From Dictyostelium discoideum (Eukaryota), in assembly GCA_000004695.1 (NCBI GenBank), contig CM000154.2:2848001-2912000 (forward strand): a stretch of DNA of 64,000 nt. The letters are read 5' to 3'. Shown in pieces: positions 12,345 to 36,546 of this stretch. Under the pieces are notes generated by a model. The model had not been told where the DNA came from, ran no database searches, and worked only from the letters and a program-made list of their open reading frames with translations. The stretch's first letter is position 1. Every line of letters begins with the position of its first letter. Made by a program: the position numbers and the translations under genes.

Positions 12345-12522
12345 CCTTGTATGTGTGGTATCTTGATTAATTAATTATAATCTTGTTTTTATTTTTTTTG
12401 TTGGTGAGGAAAAAAAGAATTGAAATGAAAAAAAAAAAAAAAGACTAAATATAATTGATCAATTTGTTATGAATTTTTTTTTTTTTTTTTTTTTATTTTT
12501 TCATTTTCAAAAAATAAAAAAA

Positions 12523-12564
<42 letters not shown>

Positions 12565-12681
12565 TTAGTCGTTGTTGTAATTTCATAAACATATATAAAA
12601 ATAACTTTAAAATTTTTTTTTTGTACAGTTTTTTTTTTTTTTTTTTTTTTTGTATTAATATTTAGAAATTATATATACAGT

Positions 12682-14469
12682 ATGGATTTATTAACAGCAT
12701 ACGATGACTCTGATGAAGAAGAGTTAACAAATACAAATACAAATACAAATACGAATACAACCACAACCACAACAACAACAACTACAACTACAACAGAAAC
12801 TACACCAACAATAAATAACAACAACAACAACAACAATAATAATAGTAATAAAACTATAACATCATTTAAACCAAGTAATTTAGCACCAATAGTAACATCA
12901 ATAAGAGTTGTAGAAAATAAAATTAATCCAAATGATAAGATATTATTATATAATCCAACAGTGGAAAGTTTAGAAGGTGATATATTTGGACCAAAGAAAC
13001 CATTTTCATCAAATGATAAAAAATTAGATCCTAAATTTAAAAATCATACAAATGGTTTGGTTGAAGATTATCATATAAATGATTATGCATTCAATCAACA
13101 GGTATTATCATTTAAAACTAATGGTTATTCAGAGAATCCAAATAATAGTACAGAGTTTATTGGTCATAGAAAAGATGAAAATGATCATACCAAAAAGAAT
13201 AATAATAATAATAAAAATAAAGATAAAAGAAAAAGAAATATAACAGATGATCCATCAAATGTTAATGGATATTTAGGACCATGGGGCACCACTAAAGCAG
13301 AATTAGATTTTAAACAAGGTAGAGAGAATGATATGGTTTCAATTGAAACTGATTTAACTGAACAACAAAGAGCATTTATGGATTCACGTGTTAAAAAACA
13401 AAAAGGTAAAGATGAAGAAGGTGGTGATATTGATTCAACTGCGGCAGCTTTATCAAATACATCAATATTTCATGGTAAATCAAAGAAGGATTATATGGGT
13501 AGATCTTGGGTTGACCCACCAAGTGATCTTAGATTGGTCACACCTGATACATTTGTACCAAAGAAATTGATTCATAATTATACTGGCCATACCAAAGGTG
13601 TTGCTGCTATTAGATATATACCAAAGTATGGTCATTTATTATTATCAGCTGGTATGGATAATACTGTAAAGATTTGGGATGCCTATGGCGACCGTCGTTG
13701 TATTCAAACCTATATGGGCCATTCACAGGCAGTTAGGGATATTTGTTTCTCAAATGATGGTCGTAGATTCCTAAGTTGTGGATATGATCGTCAGACTCGT
13801 CTTTGGGATACAGAGACTGGTAAGATACTAAGTTCATTCACAAATGGTAAAATACCCTATTGTATCAAATTCAATCCAGATGATGATAAACAAGAACAAT
13901 TCCTTTGTGGTGGTTCCGATAAGAAAATCATTCAATGGGATATCAAATCCAATCAAATCGTTCAAGAGTATGATCAACATTTAGGCGCTGTCAATACAAT
14001 TACCTTCTTGGATGACAATCGTAGATTCGTCACCTCTAGTGATGATAAATCATTACGTGTTTGGGATTGGGGTATTCCAGTGGTCATTAAATATATTAGT
14101 GATCCTTCAATGCATAGTATGCCTGCCGTTGCATTACATCCAAAGGGTAAATGGTTCGCAGCTCAATCTTTAGATAATCAAATCTTAATCTATAGTGCTC
14201 GTGATAGATTCCGTATGAATAAAAAGAAACGTTTCTTGGGTCATAATGTTTCTGGTTACGCTTGTCAATTAGGTTTCTCTCCTGATGGTAAATTCATTTA
14301 TTCGGGTGATTCAACTGGTAAAGCTTTCTTTTGGGATTGGAAAACTTCAAAAATCATTAAAACAATTAATGCTCATAATAATGTTTGTATTGGTATTGAA
14401 TGGGCTCCCTTAGAACCTTCAAAAGTTGCAACTTGTAGTTGGAATAATGAAATTAAACTGTGGGATTAA
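12682..14469 (+). CDS. cdc40: Pre-mRNA-processing factor 17 (PRP17/CDC40), WD40-repeat spliceosomal protein, single exon
   Basis: Seven WD repeats (GHTKGVAAIRYIPKYGHLLLSAGMDNTVKIWD...LRVWDW...) colinear with human CDC40. The N-terminus is T/N-rich. Confidence 0.85.
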   Translation: MDLLTAYDDSDEEELTNTNTNTNTNTTTTTTTTTTTTTETTPTINNNNNNNNNNSNKTITSFKPSNLAPIVTSIRVVENKINPNDKILLYNPTVESLEGDIFGPKKPFSSNDKKLDPKFKNHTNGLVEDYHINDYAFNQQVLSFKTNGYSENPNNSTEFIGHRKDENDHTKKNNNNNKNKDKRKRNITDDPSNVNGYLGPWGTTKAELDFKQGRENDMVSIETDLTEQQRAFMDSRVKKQKGKDEEGGDIDSTAAALSNTSIFHGKSKKDYMGRSWVDPPSDLRLVTPDTFVPKKLIHNYTGHTKGVAAIRYIPKYGHLLLSAGMDNTVKIWDAYGDRRCIQTYMGHSQAVRDICFSNDGRRFLSCGYDRQTRLWDTETGKILSSFTNGKIPYCIKFNPDDDKQEQFLCGGSDKKIIQWDIKSNQIVQEYDQHLGAVNTITFLDDNRRFVTSSDDKSLRVWDWGIPVVIKYISDPSMHSMPAVALHPKGKWFAAQSLDNQILIYSARDRFRMNKKKRFLGHNVSGYACQLGFSPDGKFIYSGDSTGKAFFWDWKTSKIIKTINAHNNVCIGIEWAPLEPSKVATCSWNNEIKLWD

Positions 14470-17400
14470 AAATAATTATAATAATAATATTAATAATAAT
14501 AAAAAAAAAAAAAAAACTAGATAGAAATTATTTTATTTATTTTGTTTTATTTATTTTTATTTGTTTTTTTATTTATTTTATTTCATTTATTTTATTTTAT
14601 TTATTTGTTTTATTATTATTTTTTAATTATTATGATTTTTATTTTTTTTGGTTATTGTTACCCATTTCATCATCGTCATTGTTATCCATTTCATCATCAT
14701 CATTGTTATCCATTTCTTCATCATAGAAGTCATCCTCCTCATCATTTCCACCCTTGGGTACAACAAAAAATTCATCTTCACTTTGTTCATCACTATCATC
14801 ATTATTATCATCATGATTATCTTTGTTGTTGTCTTGATCAGAGTTTTGAATTGATTGATTTGAATTATTATTTATTTGATTTGATTTATATATATGATCA
14901 AAATCAATTGTTGTGTGTATTAAAAATTTTTCCCAAGTATTATCTTTTGCTAAAACCTTATAGGTACCAATAACGTATAAACCTAACTTGGCTCTTGTTA
15001 GTGCTACATTGATACGTCTACGATCTGAGAGGAAACCAATACCAAATTTTTCGATTGATCTTACACATGACATAATGATGATATCTTTTTCTGAACCTTG
15101 AACACCATCAATTGTTGAAACTGAAATATTTAAATTATGATGTTCAGATCTATTTAGTTGTTCTTTGATTTGATTCATTTGTAATTTATAGGGAGTAATT
15201 ATACCAAATGATAGCTTTTTACATTCTGGATATTTTTCAATTAGTTCCTTTATTAAAGTAAATACCTTATCAATTTCATCTTGATTCATTATGGATTTTT
15301 TAATAACTTTTTGATTTGATTTTGGTAAATCAAAAAATTTCATCGGTCCAAATGAAGGATCGAAATGGAATTTACAATTGTTATAGGAATCTATTGAAAC
15401 GTTTTCACCATCTTTTAAAGTTCCGTTATAGAATTCTTCAGATATGAATTTTGATGTCACTGGATGCATACGATATTGTGTATTTAAAAATTGGACATCG
15501 ATCGATTTGGCTAATCTTTCAAATAATGATATTTTTAAACCACAGTCAGCACCTTGTTTGGAAAAAATAGTTGGTGGCAATTGAACTGGATCACCAACTA
15601 AAATTAACTTTTTAACAGAACCTAATGATAGTGGAATAATTGAGGTTGGTTCTGAAGATTGCGTAGATTCATCAATCAAAACAATATCTGGAGAAAAGTT
15701 TTCAAAAATAGCCTTTGAACCACTTCCAGCTAAAGTTGAGAAAACAATAGACGCTGATTTGATGAGGTTAATTCTTCTTGATGAATTTTTATTTTTAAGA
15801 GAAATTTTTTGACATTCTGGTGATATTTTTTCTTTTCTGCCAGTTCTAACCATGTTTGGTTTAAATATTTGACCATCACTATTTAATAGATTTTTTAAAC
15901 ATCTTTTTGCAACTTCATCTACTGATGCATGTGAAGGACCACATACCAAAATTTTGAACTTTTTGTCAATAGCTAATAAAACTGAAAGTAAATAATTGAT
16001 GGTTGTGGTTTTACCTGTACCTGGTGGACCTTGAATCAATGTTATACCACTCTCAACTAAAGATGATTTAATAGCATTAAGTTGTGATTCATTTAATTTT
16101 TCTTTACAAATTGTTTCCAAGGTTGGTGGGAATTTCATCATTTTTTGGTTCAAATTATTATTGCACCCTGGATTAAAAATAAGATTTTTAATAAATGGTG
16201 ATGCCTTAAATTCTTGAATGCTTCTAATGAATGTTACACTATTTGAAATTTTATTATAATGAATTGATGATTGAGTACTTGAATTTAATGACTTAGTAAA
16301 AAAGTGTGTTGGATTTGAATATAACAAATCGCAAACTATTGATTGTTGATGTAGGCTACCTTGCATTAAATTTGAAGTTTTTCTTACTATTCCAAATGTA
16401 AATTTTGTGCCATCTAAGCCTATTACTTTGAATAATAATATATCACCTACTGAAATTTCTTCCAGTTTATTTCTATTACCATGAATGATTAGTTCAACAG
16501 TTATAAATTTAGTTTGACGACTTATTTGGACAACTTCAATTGCTTCATTCATTTTAATTTTATCGAAACCTTCAAAAGTTCCATCTTTTGCACTATTAAT
16601 CCCATTAAGTGCATTAATTCCATTTTCAACTTGAGCTCTAAAGTCATCGAAAATTAATGGTTTATTTACTATTTGGTATTCTTTTTCTCCTGTATAATTA
16701 TCTGATAATTCACCTATACCATTTGGTTTTAGCAATGGTATTTTCGAAGGTTCACAACTTAAAATTAGATTTAAAGTTTCATCTGGACTTATTGATATTA
16801 CATCAACATAACTGTATATGTAATCAGCCTTAATCTTTGTATTATTATTATTATTATCATTATTATTTGATTTTTTGGTTCCAATGCTATGGACAGATAT
16901 TGTTTCATTTTTAAATAATTGATGAATTTCAATAAATAATAATTCTAAAACAGTTTCTAATCTTTCAGATTCATTCAATTGAAAATTTGGAATCTTTATT
17001 ATTGGAGATATCTTTGATTGAAAATCTTGAATCATTGTAACTTTAGATTTCTCTAAACACCTTGGATCGAATTTAATTTTGTTTTTTGCTAATTCACTTT
17101 TTAAATCATTGAAGGTAGTTCTATTACCTTTTGTTAAATTCCTTAACTCTATATTCTGGTAGTGATGATTAAACTCTATTAAAGCCATTAATGTTAATGT
17201 TTTTTGATATATCAAATTGACAGAACTTTTACGACTTAAATTTTCAGAGGGAATCAATTGATTTAGAGTTCTATTACAATTATTAATCTGTTGTTCAAAT
17301 GATTTTGTATCTTCTTCAATGATCCTTTTTAATTTGTTTAATTTGTTTTGGTTATTGTTTTCATTCTTTAATAATTTATTCAATTCATTGAGAATAAAAA

Positions 17401-18901
17401 GAACACTCTTAGGATCTTCAAATATTTTCATTAATAAACTATTTTTTAAACTTTTTTCAATATCAATTGTACTAGCTATTGGATTTGATAATGTTTGTTT
17501 TGGAGTTGTTATCATATCTAGTTTTGGTAAAGCAATTGTAGCTGGTATTGAAGTTGGGACAGCCGCTGGTGTTGTTGTTAATGTTGGTACAACTTGGTTT
17601 GTAGTAGTAGTTGTATTTAAACTTGGAGTTGGTAACAATGGGACCAATTTTGGAAGTGATATATCTTTGAATAATTCATTAATATCTTTAAACTTTTTTA
17701 ATCTTATTGAGTTTTCCATATGAATAAATTCAACAATAATTCTAAAGAAAGAATTTTGGATTGAAGAAGCAATATTTCTATCTGTTACAAAAGGATCCAA
17801 TACGATCATAGTACTTTTTAGCAAATCTTCATTAACAAGGGATGATCTTTTAAGTAATGGGCCATTTTTACATAGTGTACCACCGCCACTTGAATGACTG
17901 ATTGAAATAATATTCTCCTTATAGTTGAAAATTGAATAGTAGTTAAAGAATAGGTAGAAAAGTTGATCAATTTTTAATTTATTTTTACTTGAATCAAACT
18001 TATCAAAACTTTTAAATTCATAAAATTCAAAAGAATCAATTCGTTTTAAAATTGGATTTGTTGAATAGCTATTTAATAGTTGAGGTGATTTAGTTTGTAA
18101 ATTTGGTAGAATTGGTGTACTAATCGATTGAAGGAAGTGAATTACCATATTAACCAAACAGAAGGAACTAAATGTATGTTTTGATGCGTCATTCAAATTT
18201 TTACAGCTTGCCCACCATTTAACCAATAATGATAGAATGATATATCTATTATCTATGGAACAATATTCTTTCAATAATAATGAATTAAAATAAGCCTTTG
18301 ATGAATTGCAGCTCATATCGAAATGATACTTTGATGATTTCTCTACAAACCTAATTATTGGTACAGTTGCACTTAATCTCTTTTCAATGATTGTGTATAA
18401 CTTTGTTGACTCTAAATATTTGGAAACCACCTCTAAATGAGTTACTTGATTTTCATTTTGATTGATTTTGAAATTAACATCTAAATCACTACCCTCTAAT
18501 GATAATCCAGTTAAAAATGAACCATAGAGTTGAATAGATGAATCCTTAAATTTATTTGATAAAAACATTTCCAATCTATTGAAACTTTTTTCCTTTTTAC
18601 TAACTCTTTTACATTTAATTTTGTTGAATAGGATAATAAGATCATGGGTTATAGCTTTTTGATGTTTTGGAATTTGATAATTTAAATAAAAATCTGGTAT
18701 ATATTCCTTTAAATAATATGCCATATTTAATATATTTTTTTTAAAATCATTACTATGATATCCTTCTTCAGTAGGTTGTTCTTTTCTAAAGGCCTCAAAT
18801 AGTTTTATTGGGTAATCATCACCAATATTTTTTCTACTCTCAGTTTTATTTTCATTAAATTCTTTGTAAATGTTGTTGAAAATTGTAATTTCATCATTAT
18901 T

Positions 18902-18948
<47 letters not shown>

Positions 18949-20147
18949 TATCATTATCATTATTATTATTATAATTATTATTATTATTTAAAGTATTTGA
19001 GTTTGAGTTTGAGTTTGAGTTTGAGGTTGGTTTTTGAGTTTGAGTTTGAGGTTGAGATTGCGTTTGTGTGATTTTTATAACATCTGGAACCTGTTTTAAA
19101 ATGCCAGTAGCCAATGAAGTTTCTTTTAATAATCTAACCTCTTCAAATAGATTTTTAATGGTCATGATTATATTTCCACCATCGAAAGGAAGAGAAAAAT
19201 TAGGGATTTCAAAATAAATAGATGCACCATCAATGATTTCAATTGGTTTTGAAAATTCACTAAGATTTCTTGTAAATATTTTCTTAATTCCAAATCTTGA
19301 CTGAACACTTTCCAATATTGCTGAACATTTTGAAAAATTTAATCCATAAGCTTTGCAATGCTCTTTTAAATATTTTCTTTGACAAAAAAAATTAAATTCA
19401 ATGACCATTCTTAGAACAAGATATTGATTGTAAAAAATACTTGATTTAATTGATTCATTGGATTGATTTTTTAACATTGCCTTCAAACTATGTAATAATT
19501 TACCTAATAAACCATCTCTTCTACTTTTAGATTTTTTAACAAAATCTTTCATTAAATTTAATTCTATTTCATTGCCTTTAAATTGATTTTTAAAACTATC
19601 TATTACTTGAATTTGATCATTAATATCGATTTCTTTGAAAACCAATTCAAAAATATTATTCCTTTGCGCTTTTTTGATTATTAAAAAAAAAAAAGAAAAA
19701 AAAAAAAAAAAAAAATTAATATAAATAAATATATAAATAAATAAATAAATAAATAAGTAAATAATAAAAAAATAAATAAATGATAAATAATAATTAAATA
19801 AATTATCTAAAAATTAATATTAAAAAAATATTTACACATCTTGGTTTATTTATTTATTTATTCAATAAATAAAAAAAAAAGTTGAAAATTAAATGTAAAA
19901 AATGATTTAAATATTTTTTTATAGGGAGAAGTTTAAAAAAAAAAAACGATTTAAATTTTTTTTTTATAGGTTTTGTTTTTTTTTTTTTGAATCAAGGGAA
20001 AATTTTAAAAAAAAAAAAAAAAAAAAAATTTTAAAAATCGTAAAATTCATCAATTATTAAAAAATCTGAGACATGAAAATTATAATGGACATAATTAAAA
20101 AATAATTTATTATTATTTTATTTATTTGGTTTATTTTGTTTTATTTT
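14412..20147. repeat. Tandem segmental duplication, unit 1 (about 5.7 kb: last 57 bp of the PRP17 CDS, its 3' flank, and the NTase-helicase gene)
   Basis: 20148..20219 repeats 14412..14483 (PRP17 3' end ...EPSKVATCSWNNEIKLWD*) at about 90% identity. The gene bodies are colinear. Confidence 0.85.
14639..19645 (-). CDS. Nucleotidyltransferase (Cid1/Gld2/TUTase-like PAP/OAS1 family) fused to a Upf1-like SF1 RNA helicase, copy A (1668 aa, intact)
   Basis: NTase core LYGSFLTGLSLEGSDLDVNF (GS...DxD) plus downstream FDMS and a PAP-associated region. SF1 motifs: I LIQGPPGTGKTTTI, II VLIDESTQ, III LILVGDPVQLPPT, V VSTIDGVQGSEKDIIIMSCVR, VI GFLSDRRRINVALTRAKLGLYVIG. Acidic C-terminal tail. Confidence 0.8.
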
Positions 20148-23100
20148 AGAACCTTCAAAAGTTCCAACTTGCAGTAGCGATAATGAAATTAAACTGTGGG
20201 ATTAAAAATAATTATAATAAAAAAAAAAAAAAACAAGATAGAAATTATTTTATTTATTTTATTTTATTTATTTTATTTTTATTTTTATTTATTTTTTTTA
20301 TTTTATTTATTTTATTTATTATTATTATTTTTTATTATCATGATTTTTATTTTCTTTGTCGTTGTTGCCCATTTCATCATCGTCATTGTTATCCATTTCA
20401 TCATCATTGTTATCCATTTCTTCATCATCATAAAAGTCATCCTCCTCATCATTTCCACCCTTGGGTACAACAAAAAATTCATCTTCACTTTGTTCATCAC
20501 TATCATCATTATTGTCATCATGATTATTATTATTATTATTATTATTTGTTATTTCTCCACCATTATTTTCATTCTTTATCTCTAATTGATTTTCATTTTC
20601 TTTTTTATTTTCATTTTCATTTTCATTTTTATTTTCATTTTTATTTTCGTTTTCGTTTTCATTTTCATTTTCATTTTTATTTTTATTTTCATTTTCATTT
20701 TTATTTTCATTTTCATTTTCATTTTCACTTTTATTATCAATAGTATTATTATTATGATTATCTTTGTTGTCTTGGTTAGAGTTTTGAATTGATTGAATTG
20801 AATTATTATTTATTTGATTTGATTTATATATCTGATCAAAATCAATTGTTGAGTATTTTAAAAAATTTCCCCAAGTATTATCTTTTTCTAAGACCCAAGA
20901 GGTACCAATAACGTATAAACCTAACTTGGCTCTTGTTAGTGCTACATTGATACGTCTACGATCTGAGAGGAAACCAATTCCATATTTTTCGGTACATCTT
21001 ACACATGACATGATAATGATATCTTTTTCTGAACCTTGAACACCATCAATTGTTGAAACTGAAATATTTAAATAACGATGTTCAGATCTGTTTAATTGTT
21101 CTTTGATTTGAATCATTTGTAATTTATAGGGAGTAATTATACCAAATGATAGCTTTTTACATTCTGGATATTTTTCAATTAGTTCCTTTATTAAAGTAAA
21201 TACCTTATCAATTTCATCTTGATTCATTATGGATTTTTTAATAACTATTTGATCTGATTTTGGTAAATTAAAAAATTTCATTGGCCCGAATGAAGGATCG
21301 AAATGGAATTTACAATTGTTAAAGGAGTCTATCGAAACATTTTCACCATCTTTTAAAGTTCCGTTATAGAATTCTTCAGATATGAATTTTGATATCACTG
21401 GATGCATACGATATTGTGTATTTAAAAATTGGACATCGATCGATTTGGCTAATCTTTCAAATAATGATATTTTTAAACCACAGTCAGCACCATCTTTTGA
21501 AAAAATAGTTGGTGCTAATTGAACTGGGTCACCAACTAAAATTAACTTTTTAATAGAACCTAATGATAGTGGAATAATTGAGGTTGGTTCTGAAGATTGT
21601 GTAGATTCATCAATCAAAACAATATCTGGAGAAAAGTTTTCAAAAATAGCCTTTGAACCACTTCCAGCTAAAGTTGAGAAAACAATAGAGGTTGACTTGA
21701 TGAGGTTAATTCTTCTTGATGAATTTTTATTTTTAAGAGAAATTTTTTGACATTCTGGTGATATTTTTTCTTTTCTGCCAGTTCTAACCATGTTCGGTTT
21801 AAAATTTTGACCATCACTATTTAATAGATTTTTTAAACATCTTTTTGCAACTTCATCTACTGATGCATGTGAAGGACCACATACCAAAATTTTGAACTTT
21901 TTGTCAATAGCTAATAAAACTGAAAGTAAATAATTGATGGTTGTGGTTTTACCTGTACCTGGTGGACCTTGAATCAATGTTATACCACTCTCAACTAAAG
22001 ATGATTTAATAGCATTAAGTTGTGATTCATTTAATTTTTCTTTACAAATTGTTTCCAAGGTTGGTGGGAATTTCATCATTTTTTGGTTCGAATTATTATT
22101 ATTATTATTATTATGTCCTGGATTATAAATAAGATTTTTAATAAATGGTGATGCCTTAAATTCTTGAATGGTTCTAATGAATGTTACACTATTTGAAATT
22201 TTAATATAATCAATTGATGATCTAGTGCTTGGATTTAATGATAAAGTAAAAACATATGTTGGATTTGAATCAAACAAATCACAAACTATTGATTGTTGAT
22301 GTAGGCTACCTTGCATTAAATTTGAAGTTTTTCTTACTATTCCAAATATAAACTTTGTGCCATCTAAGCCTATTACTTTGAATAGTAATATATCACCTAC
22401 TGAAATTTCTTCCAATTTATTTCTATTACCATGAATGATAAGCTCAACAGTTTCAAATTCAGTTTGACGACTTCTTTGGACAACCTCAATTGATTCATTC
22501 ATTTTAATTTTATCGAAACCTTCTAAAGTACCATCTTTTTTACTTAGAATGATCCCATTGAGTGCATTAATTCCATTTTCAACTTGAGCTCTAAAGTCAT
22601 CGAAAATTAATGGTCTCATTAAGTTTTGATATTGTTTATCTCCTGTAAAATTATCTGATAATTCATCAATACCAGTTGCTCTTAGCAATGGTATTTTCGA
22701 AGGTTGACAACTTAAAATTAGATTTAATGTTTCTTCTGGACTTATTGACATTACATCAACATAATCGTATATGTAATTAGCCTTATTATTATTATTATTA
22801 TTATTATTATTTTTTGATTTTTGTATCACGAATACAGAACCTGTTTCCATTTGAAATAATTGATGAATTTCATTAAATAATAATTCTATAACAGTTTCTA
22901 ATCTTTCAGATTCATTCAATTGAAAAGTTGGAATCTTTATTATTGAAGAGATCTTTGATCGAAAATCTTTAATCATTGTAATTTTATCCTCTTTTATACT
23001 CTTTGGATCGAATTTAATTTTGCTTTTTGCTAATTCACTATTTAAATCATTGAAATTAGTTCTATTATCTTTTGTTAAATTCCTTAACTCTATATACTGG

Positions 23101-24846
23101 TAGTGATGATTAAACTCTATTAAAGCCATTAATGTTAATGTTTTTTGAAATATCAAATTGACAGAACTTTTACAACTTGTATTTTCAGAGGGAATCAATT
23201 GTTTTAGAGTTTTATTACAATTACTAATCTGTTGACTAAATGAGTCTTTTTCTTCTTCAATGATTTTTTTTAATTTGTTTAATTGATTTCGGATATTGTT
23301 TTCATTTTTTAATAAATTTTCCAATTCACTGAGAATAAAAACAACATTCTGTGGATTTTGAAATATTTTCATTAATAAACTATTTTCTAAACCTTTTTCA
23401 ACATTTATTGTAGCTGGTTTTGAAGTTTTAGTTGTTAGTGGAGTTGGTTTTGAGGTTGAATTTGTAGTTGTTGTTGTAGTTGGTGGAGCTGGTTTTGAAG
23501 TTGAATTTGTAGTTGAAGTTGGAGTTGGTGCAACTGTTTTTGTAATATTGGTATTTGTAGTTGTATTTGTAATCGGTAACAATGAAACTAGTGTTGGAAG
23601 TGATATATCTTTGAATAATTCATTAATATCTTTAAACTTTTTTAATCTTATTGAGTTTTCCATATGAATAAATTCAATAATAATTCTAAAGAAAGAATTT
23701 TGGATTGAAGAAGCAATATTTCTATCTGTTATAAATGGATCCAATACGATCATAGTACTTTTTAGCAAAGCTTCATTAACAAGGGATGATCTTTTAAGTA
23801 GTGGGCCATTTTTACATAATGAACCGCCGCCACTTGAATGACTGATTGAAATAATATTCTCTTTGTAGTTGAAAATTGAATAGTAGTTAAAGAATAGGTA
23901 GAAAAGTTGATCAATTTTTAATTTATTTTTACTTGAATCAAACTTATCAAAACTTTTAAATTCATAAAATTCAAAAGAATCAATTCGTTTTAAAATTGGA
24001 TTTGTTGAATAGCTATTTAATAGTTGAGGTGATTTAGTGTGTAAATTTGGTAAAATTGGTGTACTAATCGATTGAAGGAAGTGAATTACCATATTAACCA
24101 AACAGTAAGAACTAAATGTATGTTTTGATGCATCATTCAAATTTTTACAGCTTGTTCACCATTTAACCAATAATGATAGAATGATACATCTATTATCTAT
24201 GGAACAATATTCTTTCAATAATAATGAATTAAAATAAGCCTTTGATGAATTGAAACTCATATCGAAATGATACTTTGATGATTTCTCTACAAACCTAATT
24301 ATTGGTACAGTTGCACTTAATCTCTTTTCAATGATTGTGTATAACTTTGTTGACTCTAAATATTTGGAAACCACCTCTAAATGAGTTACTTGATTTTCAT
24401 TTTGATTGATTTTGAAATTAACATCTAAATCACTACCCTCTAATGATAATCCAGTTAAAAATGAACCATAGAGTTGAATAGATGAATCCTTAAATTTATT
24501 TGATAAAAACATTTCCAATCTATTAAAACTATTTTCCTTTTTACTAACTCTTTTGCATTTAATTTTGTTGTATATGATTTCAAGATCATGGTTTACAATT
24601 TTTTGATGTTTTGGAATTTGATTATTTGAATTAGGATCTGGTATAAAATTCCTTGAATAATATGCCATATTTAATATATTATGTTTAAAATCATTACTAT
24701 AATATCCTTCTTCAGTTGGCTTTTCTTTTTTAAAAACCTCTAATAGTTTTATTGGGTAATCATCACCAATATTTTTTCTACTTTCGTTTCTATTTTCATT
24801 AAATTCTTTGTAAATGTTGTTGAAAATTGTAATTTCATCATTATTT

Positions 24847-24899
<53 letters not shown>

Positions 24900-25995
24900 G
24901 TTGTTGTTATTATTGGTTAAAGTGTTTGGTGATTTTGATTGCGTTTGTGTGATTTTTGTAACCTTTGGTACCATTTCTAAAACACCAGTACCCAATGAGG
25001 TTTTTTTTAATATTGTAACCTCTTCACGTAGATTTTTAATGGACATGATAATATTTCCACCTTCGAAAGGAAGAGAAAAATTAGGGATTTCTAAATGAAT
25101 AGCACCATCAATGATTTCAATTGGTTTTGAAAATTCACTTGGATCTCTTGTCAATAGTCTCTTTGTTCCACCTAATCTTGAATGAATATTATCCAATTTT
25201 GGTGAATATTTTGAAATATTTAAACCATTGGTTTCACAATACTCTTTGAAATAAATTCTTTGATAATAAAAATTAAATTCGATGATCATTCTAAAAACAA
25301 GATATTGATTGTAAAGAATACTTGATTTAATTGATTTAAAGGATTGTTTTTTAAACATGGTCTTCAAATGACTTGATATTCCACCTCCTAAACTATTTCT
25401 TCTACTTTTAGATTTTTTTATAAAATCTTTCATTAAATTTAATTTTATTTCATTGCCTTTAAATTGATTTTTAAAACTATCTATTACTTGAATTTGATCA
25501 TTAATATCGATTTCTTTGAAAACCAATTCAAAAATATTATTTCTTTGCGCTTTTTCGATTATTAAAAAAAAAAAAAAAATTAGTTGACATATTTAAAAAA
25601 ATAAATCAAAAAATAAATAAATAATAAATAATAAATAATTAATATTTTAAAAATATTTACCCATCTTAATTTATTTATTTATTGAAGCTGTGTTCAATAT
25701 AGAATAAATAAATATAAAAAGTTTAAAATTAAATAATTTTTAAATTTATTATTACAGGCTTTGTTTTTTTTTTTTGAATTAAGGGAGAAGCTTTTTTTTT
25801 TTGAAAAGATTAAAAAAAAAAAATAAAAAATAAAAAAAAATAAAAATCTTTTTCAATCGTAAAATTCATCAATTAATATTTTCTATCTGAGATAAGAAAA
25901 TTTTAATAAACAACATAATTAAAAAACAATTATTTTTTAGTATTTAATTTTTTTTGGTTCAATTATTTTATTTTTATTTTATTTTATTTTTTTTA
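20148..25995. repeat. Tandem segmental duplication, unit 2 (diverged copy, 5.8 kb)
   Basis: Colinear with unit 1. The 5' flank 25861..25990 matches 20042..20147. Confidence 0.8.
20325..25526 (-). pseudogene. NTase-Upf1-like helicase fusion, copy B: in-frame TGA (W to stop) at 24156-24158, plus a coding hexanucleotide-repeat expansion; possible pseudogene or split gene
   Basis: ORFs 24156..25526 (456 aa, NTase part) and 20325..24140 (1271 aa, helicase part) are in the same frame. Copy A reads LLVKWWASCKNLNDASK where copy B reads LLVKW*TSCKNLNDASK. Confidence 0.75.
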
Positions 25996-26593: not shown

Positions 26594-27725
26594 ATGGAAT
26601 GTGAAGATGTTCGACCTATAGTTATTGATAATGGTTCTGGTATGTATAAAGCTGGTTTTGCTAGTGATGATGCTCCACGTACAATTTTTCCATCAATTGT
26701 TGGTCATCCAAAGTGCAATGGTTTTATGGTTGACATAGATCAAAAAGATTCATATGTTGGTGATGAAGCTCAATCAAAAAGGGGTATTCTAAATGTTAAA
26801 TATCCAATTGAACGTGGTATTATTACCAATTGGGATGATATGGAAAAAATCTGGTATCATACTTTTTATAATGAACTTGGTGTTTCCTATGGAACATCCA
26901 GTTCTCTTAACTGAACCACCACTAAATCCAAATAAAAATAGAGAGAAAATGACTCAAATCATGTTTGAAACTTTCAATACTCCTGAATTGTATGTTGCAA
27001 TTCAAGCTGTATTATCATTATATGCTTCTGATCGTACAACTGGTATCGTTTTGGATTCAGGTGATGGTGTTTCCCATACCGTACCGGTTTATGGTAGTTA
27101 TGCATTACCTCATGCAATTAGACGTTTACATTTAGCTGGTGGTGATCTTACTGATTACATGTGTAGAATGTTAAACTTTGAACGTTGTTACTCATTCACA
27201 ACAACTACTGAAAGAGAAGTAGTTAGAGGTATTAAAGAGAAATTAGCATATGTTGCATTGGATTTTGGAGCTGAAATGCAAACTGCAGCCTCATCATCTG
27301 CATTAGAGAAATCATATGAATTACCAGATGGCCAAGTTATTACAATCGGTAATGAACGTTTCCGTTGTCCAGAAGCACTTTTCCAACCGTCATTATTGGC
27401 TATGGACTATGATGGTATTCATGAAACAATCTATAATTCAATCATGAAATGTGATGTTGGTATTCATAAAGATTTATTTGGTAGTGTTGTATTATCAGGT
27501 GGTTCAACTATGTTCCCTGGTATTGCAGATCGTATGAATAAAGAATTAACTGCACTTGCACCATCAACAATGAAAATTAAAATTATTGCACCACCAGAAC
27601 GTAAATACTCTGTATGGATTGGTGGTTCAATTTTAGCTTCAGTTTCAACTTTCCAACAAATTTGTATTTCAAAAGAAGAATATGACGAATCTGGTCCATC
27701 AATTGTTCACAGAAAATGTTTCTAA
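26594..27725 (+). pseudogene. Actin-family gene copy 1 with a 2-nt deletion frameshift near 26885 ([41 protein letters not shown]...)
   Basis: ORFs 26594..26914 and 26793..27725 are both actin-like but in different frames. The other copies read [13 protein letters not shown] where this one reads [11 protein letters not shown]. Confidence 0.75.
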
Positions 27726-27807
27726 TTTTTTAAAAGAAAAAAAATATATTTTTAAATCGAATCTAAAATTAGTTTTGGTCTGTGAAGTTGGCAAAAGAAA
27801 ATTAGCG

Positions 27808-27845
<38 letters not shown>

Positions 27846-28087
27846 AATAACATATTGATGGAATATATCTTCTTTCATTAATTTTATAATCAAATTAAAT
27901 TTATTTCTCTTTTTTTAAATTATTACTTTATTTTTAAATTTCTACTTTTTTTTTTTTTTTTTTTATTTTAAAATCTTGGTGGCAATTAAAAAAAATAAAA
28001 TAAAACAAAAATAATAAATAATAATAAAATTTAAAAACTAAATAAAAATTAATTTGCATTATCCAATATTATTTATTTATTTGTTTA

Positions 28088-28138
<51 letters not shown>

Positions 28139-28149
28139 GATACTATTTT

Positions 28150-28275
28150 TGATTTGATTTTGTTAATTAAATTCAATTTGATTTGGTTTGATTTGATTTG
28201 ATTTGATTTGGTTGGGTTCGATTTGATTTGATTTAATTTGATTTGATTCGATTTGATTTGATTTGATTTACTTTT
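28150..28275. repeat. (GATTT)n pentanucleotide microsatellite in the actin intergenic region
   Basis: gatttgatttgatttgatttg... ORF 28069..28344(-) is simply this repeat translated (KSNQIKSNQIK). Confidence 0.9.
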
Positions 28276-28727
28276 TTTTATGCAAAAATTGCGTTTTAAA
28301 TATTTTCTTAATTTTTTAATTTTTTTAAAAAAAAAAAATTTCAAGTTTTTTTTTTTTAAAAATATTATTTTTTTTTTGTATTAAGATAATAAAAAGTAAT
28401 TCAACTCAATTTGACTATGATTCTATGACGCTGACCCCTCAGATTTTTCAGTCAGTTAAAAAAACTTGAAATTTTCAGTTCTCTGTTAATTCATATTAAT
28501 TTCTGTTTATAAAAATTACATATTATTTTAAATATATACTCCACATGTTTATAATTATTATTTTTTTTTTTTTTATTGGTAAAAAAAAAAAAAATAAAAA
28601 AATAAAAAAATTAACAGTTTATTTTAATAAACCTTAAATAATTTAAAATCATTAATAAAAAAATAAAAAAACAATACAGAGTTATATATCACAAATAATA
28701 ATCAAATAATAATCAAAATAATATAAA

Positions 28728-29861
28728 ATGGAATGTAAAGAAGACCTAACAATAGTTATTGATAATGGTTCTGGTATGTGTAAAGCTGGTTTTGCTGGTT
28801 ATGATGCTCCACATGCAGTTTTTCCATCAATTGTTGGTCGTCCTAGACATACTGGTGTTATGGTTGGTATGGGTCAAAAGGATTCATATATTGGTGATGA
28901 AGCTCAATCAAAAAGGGATATTCTAAATCTTAAATTTCCAGTTGAGCGTGGTATTATTACCAATTGGAATGATATGGAAGAAATCTGGCATCATACTTTT
29001 TATAATGAACTTCGTGTTGCTCCAGAGGAACATCCAGTTCTCTTAACTGAACCGCCATTAAATTCAAAAGCAAATAGAGAGAAAATGCCTCAAATCATGT
29101 TTGAAACTTTCAATACTCCTGCAATGTATGTTGCAATTCAAGCTGTATTATCATTATATGCATCTGGTCGTGCAACTGGTGTCATTCTGGATTCAGGTGA
29201 TGGTGTTTCTTATACTGTACCAGTTTATGAAGGTAATACATTTCCACTTTCAATTACACGTTTACATTTAGCTGGTGGTGATCTTACTGATTACATGAGT
29301 AGATTATTATACACTGATTGTGGTTACTACTTTTCAACAAAAGCTGAAAAAGAAATAGTTAAAGATATTAAAGAGAAATTAGCATATGTTGCATTGGATT
29401 TTGAAGCTGAAATGCAAACTGCAGCCTCATCGCCTTCATTAGAGAAATCATATAAATTACCAGATGGTCGAATGATCACAATTGGTAATGAACGTTTCCG
29501 TTGTCCAGAAGCACTTTTCCAACCATCATTATTGGCTATGGACTATGATGGTATTCATGAAACAACCTATAATTCAATCATGAAATGTGATGTTGATTTT
29601 CATAAAGATTTATATGGTAATGTTTTATTATCAGGTGGTTCAACTATGTTCCCAGGTATTGCAGATCGTATGAATAAAGAATTAACTGCACTTGCACCAT
29701 CAACAATGAAAATTAAAATTATTGCACCACCAGAACGTAAATACTCTGCATGGATTGGTGGTTCAATTTTAGCCTCACTTTCAAGTTTCCAACCAAGGTG
29801 GATTTCAAAAGAAGAATATGACGAATCTGGTCCATCAATTGTTCACAGAAAATGTTGGTAA
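28728..29861 (+). CDS. Divergent actin paralog, copy 2 (377 aa, intact)
   Basis: Full-length actin fold. About 80% identical to conventional actin. Ends HRKCW. Confidence 0.8.
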
Positions 29862-30256
29862 TTTTTTAAAAGAAAAAAAAAAAAATACTATTTTTTTAAT
29901 TAAATAAGAAATATATAAATGGTTGTTTAAAATTATTACCATGAATATTATAAGAATTACTATTTTTAAATATATAAACTGAGATGTAAATTAATAAAAT
30001 AATTTATTTTGCCAGAATGTAATAATTATATCTCACTAATAAAAATATCCATATAAGGAAATATTAAAAAAAAAAAAAAAAAACAGAAAATTTACATTCA
30101 TTTTTTTTATATTTTAAATCATTGATGATTTACACGTGCATTCTGAATATTTTCCTTGTTTTTTATTTTTTTTTTTTTTTTTTAATTATATAAAATTTTG
30201 TTTTTAAGTTTTTTTTTTTTTTTTAAGCAAAATATTTATTTTTCAAATTACAACAT

Positions 30257-30360
30257 TATGACAACCAAAAGTGATTTCTATGGGGCTGACCCCTTAGATT
30301 TTTCAGTTATTTAAACTTAAAAAAACTTGAAATTTTTAATTTCTCTGTTACTTAATATTA
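30257..30360 (+). promoter_or_regulatory. Conserved actin upstream element (...GCTGACCCCTTAGATTTTTCAG...CTTGAAATTTTnAnTTCTCTGTTAcTTnATATTAAT), about 150-250 bp 5' of the copy 3 ATG
   Basis: The same roughly 80-100-bp block recurs at 26318..26390 (copy 1) and 28417..28500 (copy 2), and a fragment at 34052..34100. It is conserved while the surrounding poly(A/T) DNA is not. Confidence 0.5.
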
Positions 30361-30510
30361 ATTTCATATTATTTTAAATATATATGTTCATTATTATTAT
30401 TATTAAAAAAAAAAAAAATTAATTTTTTTAAAATAAACCTAAAATAATTTAAAATCATAAAAAACCAACAATAAGGAACATATATCAAATAATAATCAAA
30501 ATAATATAAA

Positions 30511-31668
30511 ATGGAATGCGAAGAAGTTCAAGCCATAGTTATTGATAATGGTTCTAGTGTGTGTAAAGCTGGTTTTGGTGGTGATGATGCTCCTCGTACA
30601 GCTTTCCCATCAATTGTTGGTCGTCCAAGATGTACTGGTTTTATAGTTGATATGGATAAAAAAGATTCATATTTTTGTAAAAAGAATTCGTGTTTTATGG
30701 GTCAAAAGGATTTATATATTGGTGATGAAGCTCAATCAAAAAGAGGTATTCTAAATGTTAAATATCCAATTGAACGTGGTATTATTACAAATTGGAATGA
30801 CATGGAAGAAATCTGGTATCATACTTTTTATAATGAACTTCATGTTGCTCCAGAGGAACATCCAGTTCTCTTAACTGAACCACCATTAAATCCAAAAGCA
30901 AATAGAGAGAAAATGACTCAAATCATGTTTGAAACTTTCAAAACCCCTGCAATATATGTTGCCAATCAAGGTGTATTATCATTATATTCTACTGGTCTTA
31001 CAACTGGTATCGTTATGAATTCGGGTGATGGTGTTTCTCATACTGTGCCAGTTTATGAAGGTTATATTTTACGTCAAGCAATTTTAAGTTTAGATTTAGC
31101 TGGTCGTGATCTTACTGATTACATGAATGAATTATTAACTGATCGTGGTTACTACTTTACAACAAAGGGTGAAAAAGAAATAGTTAGAGGTATTAAAGAG
31201 AAATTATCATATGTTGCATTAGACTTTGAAGCTGAAATGCAAATTGCCTCCGCATCGCCTGCATTAGAGAAATCATATGAATTACCAGACGGTCAAGTTA
31301 TTACAATTGGTAATGAACGTTTCCGTTGTCCAGAAGCACTTTTCCGACCATATACTGGTATTCATGAAACAATCTATAATTCAATCATGAAATGTGATGA
31401 TGATATTCGTAAAGATTTATTTGGTAGTGTTGTATTATCAGGTGGTTCAACTATGTTTCCAGGTATTGTAGATCGTATGAATAAAGAATTAACTGCACTT
31501 GCACCATCAACAATGAAAATTAAAATTATTGCACCACCAGAACGTAAATACTCTGTATGGATTGGTGGTTCAATTTTAGCCTCACTTTCAAGTTTCCAAC
31601 CAAGGTGGATTTCAAAAGAAGAATATGACGAATCTGGTCCATCAATTGTTCACAGAAAATGTTTCTAA
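30511..31668 (+). CDS. Divergent actin paralog, copy 3 (385 aa; 9-aa insertion FCKKNSCFM in the D-loop region and a 6-aa deletion near residue 270)
   Basis: Intact ORF but with indels relative to its neighbours. It is possibly non-functional. Confidence 0.65.
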
Positions 31669-32319
31669 AAAAAAAAAAAAAAAAAAATTAGTTAAATTAA
31701 TAAAATAAAATAAAAATTATAAAAACAAAAAAAAAAACAAAAAAAAAAAAAAAGTATGGTAAAATAAAAATAAAATAAAAATTATAAAAACAAAAAAAAA
31801 AAAAATTAAAAAAAAAAAAAAATAGAATTAGTTTCTTGTCGATAAAAGAAATAATCACTCATATAAATTTTTTTCACTAGTGACATAATTTTGGCTCTAG
31901 TTACGTAATATATTATAGTAAAGCATTCGCTGAAAAAAAAAAGGTTAAAAATTAAAAAATAAAACAAAAAAAAAAAAAAAACAAAAAACTAAAAGTCTAA
32001 AAGTATGTTTCGTTGAAAAAAAAAAATTTTGAGCAGATGATCATGATCTTTTTTTTTTTGATGACCATTTTTTAAAAATAAATAAAAAAAAAAATAGAGA
32101 AAAAAAGTATGGTTTTTATTTAATCACATAAATAGTTGTTGCATCATTGTTTTTTGTTTTTCTATTTTTATTTTTTTTTTTTTTTATTTTTTTTTTTTAT
32201 TCCCACACAGAATAACGTCTATTCGTGTTTTTCTATTTTTATTTTTATTTTTTTTTTAATCAAAATTAAAATTATTTTTAAATCAATTTTAATTCGTAAT
32301 TTCAAGATATAAGGAATAT

Positions 32320-32329
32320 CCATATAAGG
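32320..32329 (+). promoter_or_regulatory. CArG box (CCATATAAGG, matching CC(A/T)6GG) 19 bp upstream of the ATG of actin-like copy 4
   Basis: Exact match to the SRF/MADS-box consensus. Identical boxes occur at 30049..30058, 33962..33971 and 35053..35062 (the last is 19 bp upstream of the copy 6 ATG). Confidence 0.5.
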
Positions 32330-32347
32330 AAATATTGTAAAAATAAA

Positions 32348-33466: not shown

Positions 33467-33467
33467 C

Positions 33468-33509
<42 letters not shown>

Positions 33510-33628
33510 CAATTCCAGTTTTCTTCAAATTTTATTCTTAAAAATTATTTTTAAAATTATATTATTAATAAAAATGTTATAAATTTATGGGAAAATATTA
33601 TATTAATTTTTTTTGTTTTGGTAATAAT

Positions 33629-33680
<52 letters not shown>

Positions 33681-33810
33681 TTTTTTTTTTTTTTTTTTTT
33701 TTTTGTATAAATAATTATTTTTTAAATGAAAAAAAAAAATAAAAAAACTTTAAAAAATAAACAATAATTTATATATTCAAATAATAATCAAAATAATAAA
33801 AAAAAAAAAA

Positions 33811-35062: not shown

Positions 35063-35080
35063 AAATATTGTAAAAATAAA

Positions 35081-36498: not shown

Positions 36499-36546
<48 letters not shown>

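Follow-up and report, generated by a model that had tools for sequence, protein, structure and literature searches.

Gene structure of the tandem locus

In a window of 64,000 nt from Dictyostelium discoideum chromosome 5, paralogous minus-strand frames (14639..19645; 20325..24140 plus 24156..25526) were found to belong to a tandem pair of genes (Table 1). Our splice model of copy 1, in which a four-nucleotide exon precedes a single long one, matches the public gene call exactly in its product and its 5201-nt span. One unbroken frame runs through the nucleotidyltransferase (NTase) and helicase domains of this copy and, as the DNA is ~25% G+C and the frame is free of stops over 5 kb, it cannot have arisen by chance. 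All the motifs quoted in the first-pass annotation of the locus (LYGSFLTGLSLEGSDLDVNF, FDMS, GPPGTGKT, DESTQ, LVGDPVQLPPT, QGSEKDIIIMSCVR and RINVALTRAK) were found, and its claim that both enzymes reside in one polypeptide holds, catalytic residues being retained in both domains.

Table 1. Features of the tandem locus, in window positions.
Feature	Position	Strand	Evidence or remark
Copy 1, intact gene, 1677 aa	14639..19839	-	ORF and splice model from sequence; public gene call
Copy 1 exon 1, ATGT	19836-19839	-	4 nt; splice model
Copy 1 intron, GTAAAT...AAAAAG	19669-19835	-	167 nt; splice model
Copy 1 exon 2	14639-19668	-	single long exon; stop at 14639-14641
Copy 1 N-terminal region (about aa 1-330)	18686..19668	-	N/D-rich low-complexity tract
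Copy 1 NTase module, Cid1/TUT/GLD-2-type (predicted)	17651..18685	-	Pfam, PDB sequence, alignment, predicted fold
Copy 1 middle region, T/P-rich linker, then predicted helices	16775..17650	-	fast-evolving
Copy 1 SF1B helicase module, Sen1/senataxin-type (predicted)	14921..16774	-	Pfam, PDB sequence, homologue names, NJ tree, fold
Copy 1 C-terminal tail, acidic, D/N/E-rich	14642..14920	-	translation and composition
Copy 2, tandem paralogue, collinear with copy 1 but interrupted	20325..25664	-	translation and pairwise alignment
Copy 2 exon 1, ATGG	25661-25664	-	
Copy 2 intron	25550-25660	-	
Copy 2 reading frame	25549 down to 20325	-	
Copy 2 in-frame TGA (copy 1: TGG)	24156-24158	-	translation, alignment, second assembly
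Tandem units, head-to-tail, abutting	14410-20145; 20146-25924	.	blastn of the two halves

Outside the two enzymatic modules little could be assigned. The N-terminal region of copy 1 had no Pfam match, as expected from the earlier statement that it holds no recognisable domain, and was modelled by AlphaFold as helices and disorder with a pLDDT below 50. Its first residues (aa 2-49) bear a weak likeness to the N-terminus of a D. purpureum protein (iE 2.5e-5); the rest bears none. Likewise, a Pfam search of the middle region gave no match, its helices have low pLDDT in the model, and it shows no significant similarity to the N-terminal parts of other members of the family.

The locus had been described as two giant genes of ~1670 aa each, which is correct for copy 1, whereas copy 2 is interrupted by the TGA. 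This codon (WWAS to W*TS) falls within the C-terminal lobe of the NTase, so that the domain is cut after its palm and parted from the helicase. The same base is present in a second assembly, GCA_054883475.1, whose DNA is 100% identical to copy 2 over window positions 20325-25760 and in which copy 2 is called as a 465-aa gene and a 1255-aa gene. As copy 2 carries this single lesion and no frameshift, its inactivation is recent. The proposed tandem duplication was borne out as an exact head-to-tail pair: by blastn, 14410-20100 and 20146-25924 share 87% nucleotide identity over 5.4 kb, and each duplicated unit extends beyond the gene by ~230 nt on the 3' side and ~260-400 nt on the 5' side. Overall dS between the copies is ~0.14, and the comparison indicates that the duplication in D. 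discoideum is recent.

The nucleotidyltransferase domain

Pfam detected MTPAP-like_central, TUTase and NTP_transf_2 at aa 335-462 of the ORF. The catalytic Asp and Ser residues, whose absence would have spoken against an NTase, are present in invariant columns of the alignment (G384-S385, D396xD398 and the third Asp, D452, in the 1677-aa numbering), as are the conserved Lys and Ser of the NTP site; the sequence of the nucleotide-recognition loop is DPFVTDRN. PDB sequence matches to TUT4, GLD2, URT1 and Cid1 had E values of 4e-25 to 3e-19 (1e-30 to 1e-17 in further alignments). In agreement with these data, the model of the domain (pLDDT 85-96) aligned in Foldseek to URT1, Cid1, TUT7, CutA and GLD-2 with TM scores of 0.76-0.85 over ~340 residues. 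The earlier reading as a Pol-beta-type NTase is thus upheld by Pfam, PDB matches and fold; its PAP-associated-like segment was not recovered by Pfam, PAP_assoc (PF03828) failing to reach the threshold in either D. discoideum copy. Despite this miss, the Cid1 and URT1 alignments and the predicted fold still cover the whole catalytic module. Judged by sequence and model, the catalytic module is complete, is of the Cid1/URT1/TUT7/GLD-2 type and has its GS...DxD...D signature intact.

The domain shares its two-lobe organisation, signature and NTP-site Lys and Ser with the Cid1/URT1/TUT4-TUT7/GLD-2/CutA TENTs, but it differs from them in being joined to a helicase and, in the D. discoideum protein, in having no CCHC zinc knuckles. 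A further difference is the position of the UTP-selecting His (H336 in Cid1), which is occupied by Arg in D. discoideum and, in other family members, by H, S, N or F; because of this variability the tail nucleotide cannot be predicted.

The helicase domain

As the first-pass annotation had anticipated, Pfam detected AAA_11/AAA_12 (ORF aa 1183-1561). The module comprises a stalk, a 1B beta-barrel ahead of RecA1, and RecA1/RecA2, and the motif set I-VI is intact (I, GPPGTGKT; II, DESTQ; III, LVGDPVQLPP; V, TIDGVQGSEKD; VI, RRRINVALTRAK). The best PDB match by sequence was Sen1 (5mzn, E 1.6e-69, 238 bits), followed by Upf1 (7.7e-60, 206 bits), IGHMBP2 (139 bits) and ZNFX1 (104 bits). Among the matches listed outside the D. 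discoideum group, all those with a functional name (119/119) are MAGATAMA3, senataxin or SEN1. The predicted structure (pLDDT 80-95) gave the same picture, as the top five Foldseek matches were all Sen1/SETX (8ram, 8ftm, 5mzn; 1e-45 to 5e-41), with ZNFX1 at 2e-32. In a neighbour-joining distance tree the sister clade consists of a Heterostelium Sen1-like protein and proteins of ~2000 aa. The MOV10/SDE3/Armitage and Hrr1/ZNFX1 types, the basis of the comparison with RDRC, were rejected on named homologues, tree, PDB matches and fold. What stands of the original description as an Upf1/MOV10/SDE3-like SF1 helicase is its completeness and its place in the Upf1-like superfamily; within the Upf1-like SF1B helicases, sequence and predicted fold indicate that it is of the Sen1/senataxin/MAGATAMA3 type.

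This raises the question of whether the protein might act in the nucleus as a termination or R-loop factor of the Sen1 kind that brings its own TRAMP-like tailing activity. The helicase would detach nascent RNAs, non-coding or aberrant, from RNA polymerase; tagged by the NTase, these would then go to the nuclear exosome, an arrangement that would amount to the yeast Nrd1-Nab3-Sen1 to Trf4 hand-off within a single protein. The helicase is indeed nearest to Sen1/SETX by every measure used, and in yeast Sen1-dependent termination, upstream of Trf4, is coupled to Trf4 polyadenylation. In TRAMP (Trf4/5-Air1/2-Mtr4), too, an RNA helicase and a non-canonical NTase tag RNAs for exosome decay; however, its components are separate proteins and Mtr4 is an SF2 3'-to-5' helicase. 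Against a nuclear role, the NTase resembles the cytoplasmic Cid1/TUT/GLD-2/URT1 enzymes much more (84-90 bits) than it does Trf4 (38 bits), and Trf4 was missing from the Foldseek top 50. Unlike Sen1, moreover, the fusion protein bears a terminal nucleotidyltransferase, and neither SEN1_N (searched with Pfam) nor a HEAT-like N-terminal domain was detected. Since a longer Sen1-like protein is encoded separately in dictyostelids (P0060 and a Synstelium protein), the canonical Sen1 role is probably already covered. We therefore consider a nuclear termination factor improbable.

The fusion in other dictyostelids

A search for the same architecture, suggested by the earlier annotation for Amoebozoa, identified NTase plus helicase in nine proteins, spread over five further dictyostelid species: D. 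purpureum and Heterostelium album, Cavenderia fasciculata (three proteins), Acytostelium subglobosum (two) and Polysphondylium violaceum (two). Of 1.84 billion representative proteins searched, the 150 that matched best included no fusion from outside the dictyostelids. All nine proteins have the helicase first and the NTase second, the reverse of the order in D. discoideum, whose aa 223-671 map to positions 1118-1576 of the family profile and aa 700-1670 to positions 241-1155. Given the uniform order in all other dictyostelids examined, we took helicase-then-NTase as ancestral and the D. discoideum lineage as a domain-order-swapped variant.

Could the NTase and helicase be separate neighbouring genes joined by an error of gene model or assembly? 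Copy 2 is annotated as two genes, and in P. violaceum a free-standing NTase gene lies between the two fusion genes. Yet the split of copy 2 stems from the single TGG-to-TGA change, copy 1 has its unbroken frame, and in seven genes from the five other species, checked in DNA, both domains likewise lie within one stop-free stretch. Such an artefact is hardly credible. Because the fusion recurs in the nine other proteins and in single stop-free stretches, these comparisons indicate that it is evolutionarily maintained, not accidental, and that it defines an uncharacterised, Dictyostelia-wide gene family. The first-pass annotation knew of no described family with this architecture, and our literature search found no paper describing it; members are nevertheless present in public databases, as entries that either lack characterisation or bear the wrong name 'Regulator of nonsense transcripts-like'.

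Selection and decay

Between copies 1 and 2, the NTase had a dN/dS of 0.25 and the helicase one of 0.34, in contrast to 0.87 for the N-terminal and 0.90 for the middle region. These ratios show that after duplication the catalytic cores were under purifying selection and that the other regions were almost neutral (~0.9). Helicase dN/dS against the single-copy orthologue of a sibling species, Dictyostelium cf. discoideum, was again 0.34, so neither lineage has probably been a pseudogene for long. That orthologue has at least five frame changes and three stops, which may partly be long-read indel errors, and its neighbours are intact. In D. purpureum, the helicase motifs are atypical (GLTGTGKT, DDATQ). 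Owing to the truncation of copy 2, the cf. discoideum lesions and these atypical motifs, the D. discoideum group seems able to do without the family. The idea of a fast-evolving, defence-type gene is therefore only partly sustained: the non-catalytic regions do evolve fast, but decay competes as an explanation.

Taken further, decay would make the D. discoideum locus an evolutionary relic, in which the swapped genes are non-functional or near loss and copy 1 has not yet been broken. The nonsense codon in two assemblies, the damaged cf. discoideum orthologue amid intact neighbours and the near-neutral N-terminal and middle regions are all consistent with this. On the other hand, copy 1 retains every catalytic motif in its stop-free 5 kb, the core ratios show that selection was acting through most of the period after the duplication and after the cf. 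discoideum split, and the lesions are either recent (copy 2) or possibly in part technical (cf. discoideum). We regard a relic as possible, though rather unlikely.

Proposed function and comparison with known systems

Upf1-like SF1B helicases, Sen1 included, translocate 5' to 3', Cid1-family enzymes tail RNA 3' ends and thereby lead to decay, and pairings of a helicase with a TENT recur (TRAMP, NNS-TRAMP, MOV10 or UPF1 with TUT4/7, and RDRC). We give roughly even chances to the Dictyostelia family being a self-contained unwind-and-tail enzyme for RNA surveillance or restriction, made of a Sen1-type helicase and a Cid1-type NTase. The helicase would load on single-stranded RNA and, moving 5' to 3', strip proteins, duplexes or a polymerase off it; the freed 3' end would be passed to the NTase of the same molecule, which would add a non-templated tail that may mark the RNA for 3'-to-5' decay.

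A rival proposal, close to that of the first-pass annotation, is an RDRC-like silencing module that would work with the Dictyostelium RdRPs RrpA-C in the way that Cid12 and Hrr1 serve Rdp1 in fission yeast. It would tail and unwind templates, presumably with siRNA amplification or retrotransposon silencing as the outcome. In composition, RDRC (Rdp1-Hrr1-Cid12) without its RdRP amounts to an NTase plus an SF1 helicase, and by analogy a Cid1-family NTase and a helicase of the Upf1-like superfamily would act on the same RNA. Recurrent tandem duplication and fast-evolving non-catalytic regions are typical of genome-defence genes, and two amoebozoan RdRPs are reported to carry a PAP-type NTase domain (preprint 10.1101/2023.10.19.562841). 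Nematode MUT-2/RDE-3-like proteins were also among the few matches of a word-limited NTase search, but these come from a word-indexed sample and score below TUT4, GLD-2 and URT1. In contrast to RDRC, whose separate proteins assemble around an RdRP and whose Hrr1 is of the ZNFX1 type, the dictyostelid fusion has a Sen1/SETX-type helicase, not one of the Hrr1/ZNFX1 or SDE3/MOV10 types. Furthermore, no RdRP, Argonaute or Dicer gene adjoins family members at the six loci examined, the flanking genes being either housekeeping genes or ones for which no domain is recorded, and decay of the gene is under way in the D. discoideum group, in which RNAi is active. We thus judge an RDRC-like role unlikely.

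Two other systems resemble the proposed unwind-and-tail enzyme. In LINE-1 restriction and histone mRNA decay, MOV10 or UPF1 and TUT4/TUT7, a 5'-to-3' Upf1-like helicase and a Cid1-family uridylyltransferase, destabilise the same RNA, and TUT4 and TUT7 are among the top matches of the fusion NTase; however, these are separate proteins with a helicase of another subfamily, and U-specificity is not predicted for the fusion. HELZ2 joins an SF1B helicase in cis to an RNA 3'-end enzyme, and HELZ2-like proteins were among the helicase matches, although its partner domain is an RNB exoribonuclease rather than a nucleotidyltransferase.

A helicase-nucleotidyltransferase fusion is conserved across Dictyostelia

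Aa 320-1519 of the fusion protein were used for an exhaustive HMMER search of 1.84 billion representative proteins. Its top scores, far over any helicase-only protein, went to D. purpureum DICPUDRAFT_150267 and to proteins of four further dictyostelid species, namely Heterostelium album, Cavenderia fasciculata (3), Acytostelium subglobosum (2) and Polysphondylium violaceum (2). All nine of these other family members have AAA_11/AAA_12 followed by MTPAP-like_central, and no NTase domain was found in the other proteins of the top 150. Both domains lie in one frame and each is closest to those of other members: D. purpureum provides the best match for both D. discoideum domains (helicase, 37% identity; NTase, 41%), and the highest scores of the D. 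discoideum NTase go to family members. The fusions are real, since the helicase motifs and the NTase GS...DxD share one stop-free DNA stretch in seven genes from five species. Dictyostelids as a group thus carry a conserved fusion of a Sen1-type helicase with a Cid1-type non-canonical nucleotidyltransferase (TENT), in which the catalytic residues are intact and one lineage has its domain order swapped. Each domain is of a standard, well-known type; the fused architecture is known only as uncharacterised database entries. Several members are auto-named 'Regulator of nonsense transcripts-like', our literature search found no paper describing the fused architecture, and searches on the neighbouring genes gave only unrelated genes (ctxA, vacA).

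Two members showed additional features. The D. purpureum protein has an N-terminal extension of ~1130 aa without known domain, and a chromodomain gene fragment lies ~5 kb upstream of its gene. Its motif I (GLTGTGKT) and motif II (DDATQ vs DExxQ) are atypical, so its ATPase may be weakened or altered. In H. album, a 1439-aa gene without Pfam match lies on the strand of the helicase-NTase gene and ends only ~150 nt before it; it might be a mis-split N-terminal extension resembling the long D. purpureum N-terminus.

Copy 1 is intact and copy 2 is interrupted

The tandem pair lies in a window of ~25% G+C, and ORFs near it match exactly act24, act3 and DDB_G0289513 of D. discoideum AX4 chromosome 5. 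On one side it is flanked by a glutaminyl-tRNA synthetase gene and a WD40 gene, and on the other by seven actin-like ORFs. Because the homology between the copies reaches upstream of the first in-frame ATG of copy 1, and splice sequences are present there, we assigned this gene a first exon of 4 nt and an intron of 167 nt, giving a spliced protein of 1677 aa that starts with MSQRNNIF. A public gene call in GCA_054883475.1 agrees with this model both in product length and in its span of 5201 nt. Copy 2 has an equivalent first exon, ATGG, and its frame is broken by a TGG-to-TGA change within the C-terminal NTase lobe. In GCA_054883475.1, the copy 2 DNA shows 100% identity and is called as genes of 465 and 1255 aa. 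The motifs quoted in the first-pass annotation are present in both copies, but the length of about 1670 aa that it gave for each holds for copy 1 alone, since copy 2 carries the TGA and is called as two genes.

Coordinates of the tandem pair, its surroundings and related dictyostelid loci
Feature	Sequence	Position	Strand	Remarks
Copy 1, uninterrupted frame	window	14639-19645	-	1668 codons counted from the first TTG
Copy 1, first exon	window	19836-19839	-	4 nt; ATGT/GTAAAT...AAAAAG/CG
Copy 2, frame in two pieces	window	20325-24140 and 24156-25526	-	paralogous to the copy 1 frame
Copy 2, TGA codon	window	24156-24158	-	
Copy 2, repeat insertion in acidic tail	window	about 20400-20700	-	~75 codons, NENENK-type
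Duplication units	window	14410-20100 and 20146-25924		abutting, head to tail, 87% identical
Seven actin-like ORFs	window	26793-39948	+	
First actin-like ORF	window	26793-27725	+	310 aa
act24	window	28728-29861	+	
act3	window	36652-37782	+	
cf. discoideum orthologue	L002 (JBTAPH010000031.1)	6816-11678		annotated as 922-aa and 593-aa genes
D. purpureum member	L001 (GL871006.1)	10001-17202		
Chromodomain gene fragment	L001 (GL871006.1)	4377-4637		
P. violaceum stand-alone NTase	L004 (AJWJ01000248.1)	13850-15133		427 aa
H. album locus	L006 (GL290984.1)	5269-9850		

The duplication is young (overall dS ~0.14 between the copies). Paralogue dN/dS was 0.25 in the NTase and 0.34 in the helicase, and reached 0.87 in the N-terminal 340 aa and 0.90 in the middle region. 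The dS values were very uneven: some stretches of the NTase and helicase cores had 0.02-0.05, compared with ~0.37 in low-complexity and linker parts. Given the low dS in the catalytic cores, some gene conversion between them is possible; the pattern hints either at this or at alignment noise in repeats. The acidic tail of copy 2 also contains an insertion of repeats that copy 1 lacks.

As homology searches and exact look-ups returned no protein for the D. discoideum copies, we had suspected that they were annotated as pseudogenes. This was rejected, since gene calls of 1677, 1255 and 465 aa exist on two contigs of >1 Mb. The protein collections used here are incomplete, as they hold neither these three products nor the 922-aa cf. 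discoideum product despite the gene calls. The word-indexed protein search also missed the D. purpureum protein, so negatives from searches of this type do not equal absence.

The helicase probably belongs to the Sen1/senataxin branch

Pfam assigned AAA_11 (2.8e-48) and AAA_12 (8.2e-61) to copy 1 at ORF aa 1183-1561 (ORF numbering refers to the uninterrupted frame). Motifs I, Ia, II (DExxQ) and III-VI are all present (GPPGTGKT, VCGPSHASVDE, DESTQ, LVGDPVQLPP, QYRMHP, TIDGVQGSEKD and RRRINVALTRAK). An AlphaFold model of aa 700-1620 was confident in the stalk, the barrel and RecA1/RecA2, and shows the 1B beta-barrel on a stalk ahead of RecA1, with the stalk helix at model residues 297-324 and beta-strands at 345-445 (pLDDT ~75-83).

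Several comparisons pointed to Sen1 as the nearest relative. Among solved structures, the E-values were 1.6e-69 for Sen1 and 7.7e-60 for Upf1, and bit scores fell from Sen1 (238) through Upf1 (206), IGHMBP2 (139) and DNA2 (121) to ZNFX1 (104). Out of the best 120 matches in a collection of 5.8 billion proteins, the top one was a Dictyostelium cf. discoideum fragment, and the remaining functionally named ones were all MAGATAMA3, senataxin or SEN1; MAGATAMA3 is the plant Sen1 homologue. No MOV10-, SDE3- or Armitage-named protein occurred among these functionally named matches or among the PDB matches. A Foldseek search of the PDB ranked Sen1/SETX in the five best places (1e-45 to 5e-41), followed by Upf1 (8e-41 and weaker) and ZNFX1 (2e-32), and the alignments to Sen1 and Upf1 covered ~650 columns. 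In a neighbour-joining tree of the 160 closest helicase cores, which was built without bootstrap and so lends moderate support, the dictyostelid fusion proteins formed one clade, with a sister group of a Heterostelium 'putative splicing endonuclease' (Sen1-like) and proteins of ~2000 aa.

The HEAT/ARM-like N-terminal domain SEN1_N gave no Pfam match at E <= 0.1; the regions upstream of the helicase are predicted as low-confidence helices and have no detectable homologues. Nor does the core group with ZNFX1/Hrr1, judging by the bit scores and fold ranking above, and no Cys/His pattern indicating NFX1-type zinc fingers was found. We therefore consider, with moderate confidence, that this Upf1-like SF1B helicase falls in the Sen1/senataxin rather than the MOV10/SDE3 or ZNFX1/Hrr1 branch, an assignment based on score ranking, named matches, the fold search and a tree made up of the 160 closest proteins. 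The MOV10/SDE3-like helicase type proposed in the first-pass annotation was not borne out, as Sen1/SETX came first by bit scores, names, tree and fold.

The NTase is a Cid1-family enzyme with intact catalytic residues

In copy 1, Pfam detected MTPAP-like_central, TUTase and NTP_transf_2 at ORF aa 335-462, and the matches among solved structures were TUT4, GLD-2, URT1, TUT7 and Cid1 (4e-25 to 3e-19); Trf4 matched much more weakly (38 bits in the PDB sequence search). The Pol-beta NTase signature hG[GS]x9-13Dh[DE]h with its third carboxylate is provided by YGSFLTGLSLEGSDLDV and FDMS. In the numbering of the 1677-aa protein, G384, S385, D396, D398 and D452 fall on the catalytic positions of TUT4, TUT7 and URT1, and in an alignment of 23 sequences the GS, the DxD, the third Asp and the NTP-site Lys and Ser are invariant or nearly so. 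AlphaFold modelled the NTase (aa about 335-670) with a pLDDT of 85-96, and the model superposes on the complete catalytic modules of URT1, Cid1, TUT7, CutA and GLD-2 with TM 0.76-0.85. Both alignment and model thus identify the module as a Cid1-family non-canonical NTase.

Pfam PF03828 (PAP_assoc) was not detected in the D. discoideum copies and was found in six other family members, out of seven scanned. The PAP-associated (central) lobe is nevertheless present, as phmmer alignments to Cid1 and URT1 span ORF aa about 321-665 and the model superposes on whole Cid1, URT1 and TUT7 modules with TM 0.8; in copy 2 the TGA removes it. Where Cid1 has the His that selects UTP (H336), D. discoideum has Arg (DPFVTDRN vs DPFETSHD in URT1), and within the family only the Cavenderia protein P0054 has His there. 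Since this recognition-loop position is Arg and varies across the family, the added nucleotide cannot be predicted. The first 330 aa of copy 1 were modelled as low-confidence helices and disorder, and a search for zinc knuckles, Cys/His zinc-finger patterns and other small RNA-binding motifs found none.

The two catalytic blocks are swapped in D. discoideum

The helicase precedes the NTase in each of the nine other members, whereas the order is reversed in D. discoideum. Against a profile of these nine, D. discoideum aa 223-671 aligned with positions 1118-1576 (linker and NTase), and residues 700-1670 with positions 241-1155. Solid homology is limited to two blocks, the NTase and the barrel plus helicase (ORF aa 958-1575). 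A simple circular permutation through fusion of tandem genes was set aside: the middle region of copy 1 (aa 690-965) matches nothing significantly, the family N-terminal regions included, and there is a weak match between the extreme N-termini of copy 1 and the D. purpureum protein (iE 2.5e-5). For the same reasons we limit our claim to an exchange in order between the NTase block and the helicase block.

Family members often occur in tandem arrays. Two fusion genes stand side by side in A. subglobosum, and P. violaceum has a fusion, a stand-alone Cid1-type NTase and a second fusion on one strand. A gene re-partitioned into NTase-then-helicase order could readily arise from such arrays, with the exact path being our inference, and the stand-alone P. 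violaceum NTase could be an intermediate toward the NTase-first arrangement of D. discoideum.

Dictyostelium cf. discoideum (GCA_054859205.1) carries a single copy at the syntenic locus, in the swapped order as in D. discoideum. At least five frame changes and three in-frame stops interrupt this orthologue amid intact neighbouring genes; it is either a pseudogene or in part the product of assembly indel errors. Its helicase dN/dS against AX4 copy 1 is 0.34; together with the values between the paralogues, this indicates that the swapped gene was under selection until recently in both lineages. Copy 2 and the cf. discoideum gene are probably recent losses, with some lesions of the latter perhaps being assembly errors. 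The locus shows gene evolution in progress: its domain order differs from that of D. purpureum, one of its tandem copies is young and has been inactivated at a single codon, and its orthologue in a sibling species has decayed.

The fusion could couple unwinding to 3' tailing

Several pathways of RNA decay and silencing pair a helicase with a terminal nucleotidyltransferase on separate polypeptides: TRAMP, NNS-TRAMP, RDRC, and MOV10 or UPF1 acting with TUT4/7. SF1B helicases of the Sen1 type move 5' to 3', which would bring the helicase to the 3' end of the RNA, the site of NTase action. Fusion would in this way couple the removal of RNPs or duplexes to 3' tailing, which in turn would lead to RNA decay. 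The dictyostelid protein would work like these systems, yet it is a member of none of them. As a conserved natural fusion, it offers independent evolutionary evidence that one RNA molecule is the target of both activities. In particular it implicates a helicase of the Sen1 type, for which such a pairing is so far undescribed.

The first-pass annotation had read the fusion as an RDRC-like RNA-silencing module, which we regard as improbable. With a helicase of neither Hrr1/ZNFX1 nor SDE3 type, the chief sequence argument for this reading falls away, and synteny at six family loci revealed no RdRP, Argonaute, Dicer or nuclease gene within about 10 kb, nor any conserved neighbouring partner gene. 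In its favour, the legend of Extended Data Fig. 10 of a bioRxiv preprint notes that two amoebozoan RdRP homologues contain a poly(A)-polymerase-type NTase domain (10.1101/2023.10.19.562841). Such RdRP-NTase fusions, which are separate from the helicase-NTase fusion, could bear on the question of NTases acting together with RdRPs in Amoebozoa.

For the coupling of a Sen1-type helicase to a Cid1-type NTase, we tentatively suggest that an 'unwind-and-tail' RNA restriction enzyme arose in social amoebae, joining 5'-to-3' unwinding to tailing in a single polypeptide, against retroelement or other aberrant RNAs. It would duplicate in tandem repeatedly and evolve fast under genetic conflict, and its domain order would have been swapped in the D. 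discoideum lineage with function kept. If true, it would be a natural 'Rosetta stone' for Sen1-like helicases and TENTs acting on one RNA molecule, and a clean eukaryotic case of a functional domain-order swap born in a tandem array. As dictyostelids are genetically tractable, the idea is directly testable.

Finally, an Rfam scan of the whole window gave no matches. In the neighbouring actin cluster, the first ORF is missing its N-terminal portion and appears in GCA_054883475.1 as two called fragments, of 106 and 258 aa; a further 135-aa actin fragment is called in that assembly. Given these fragmentary ORFs and calls, the cluster contains decayed copies.
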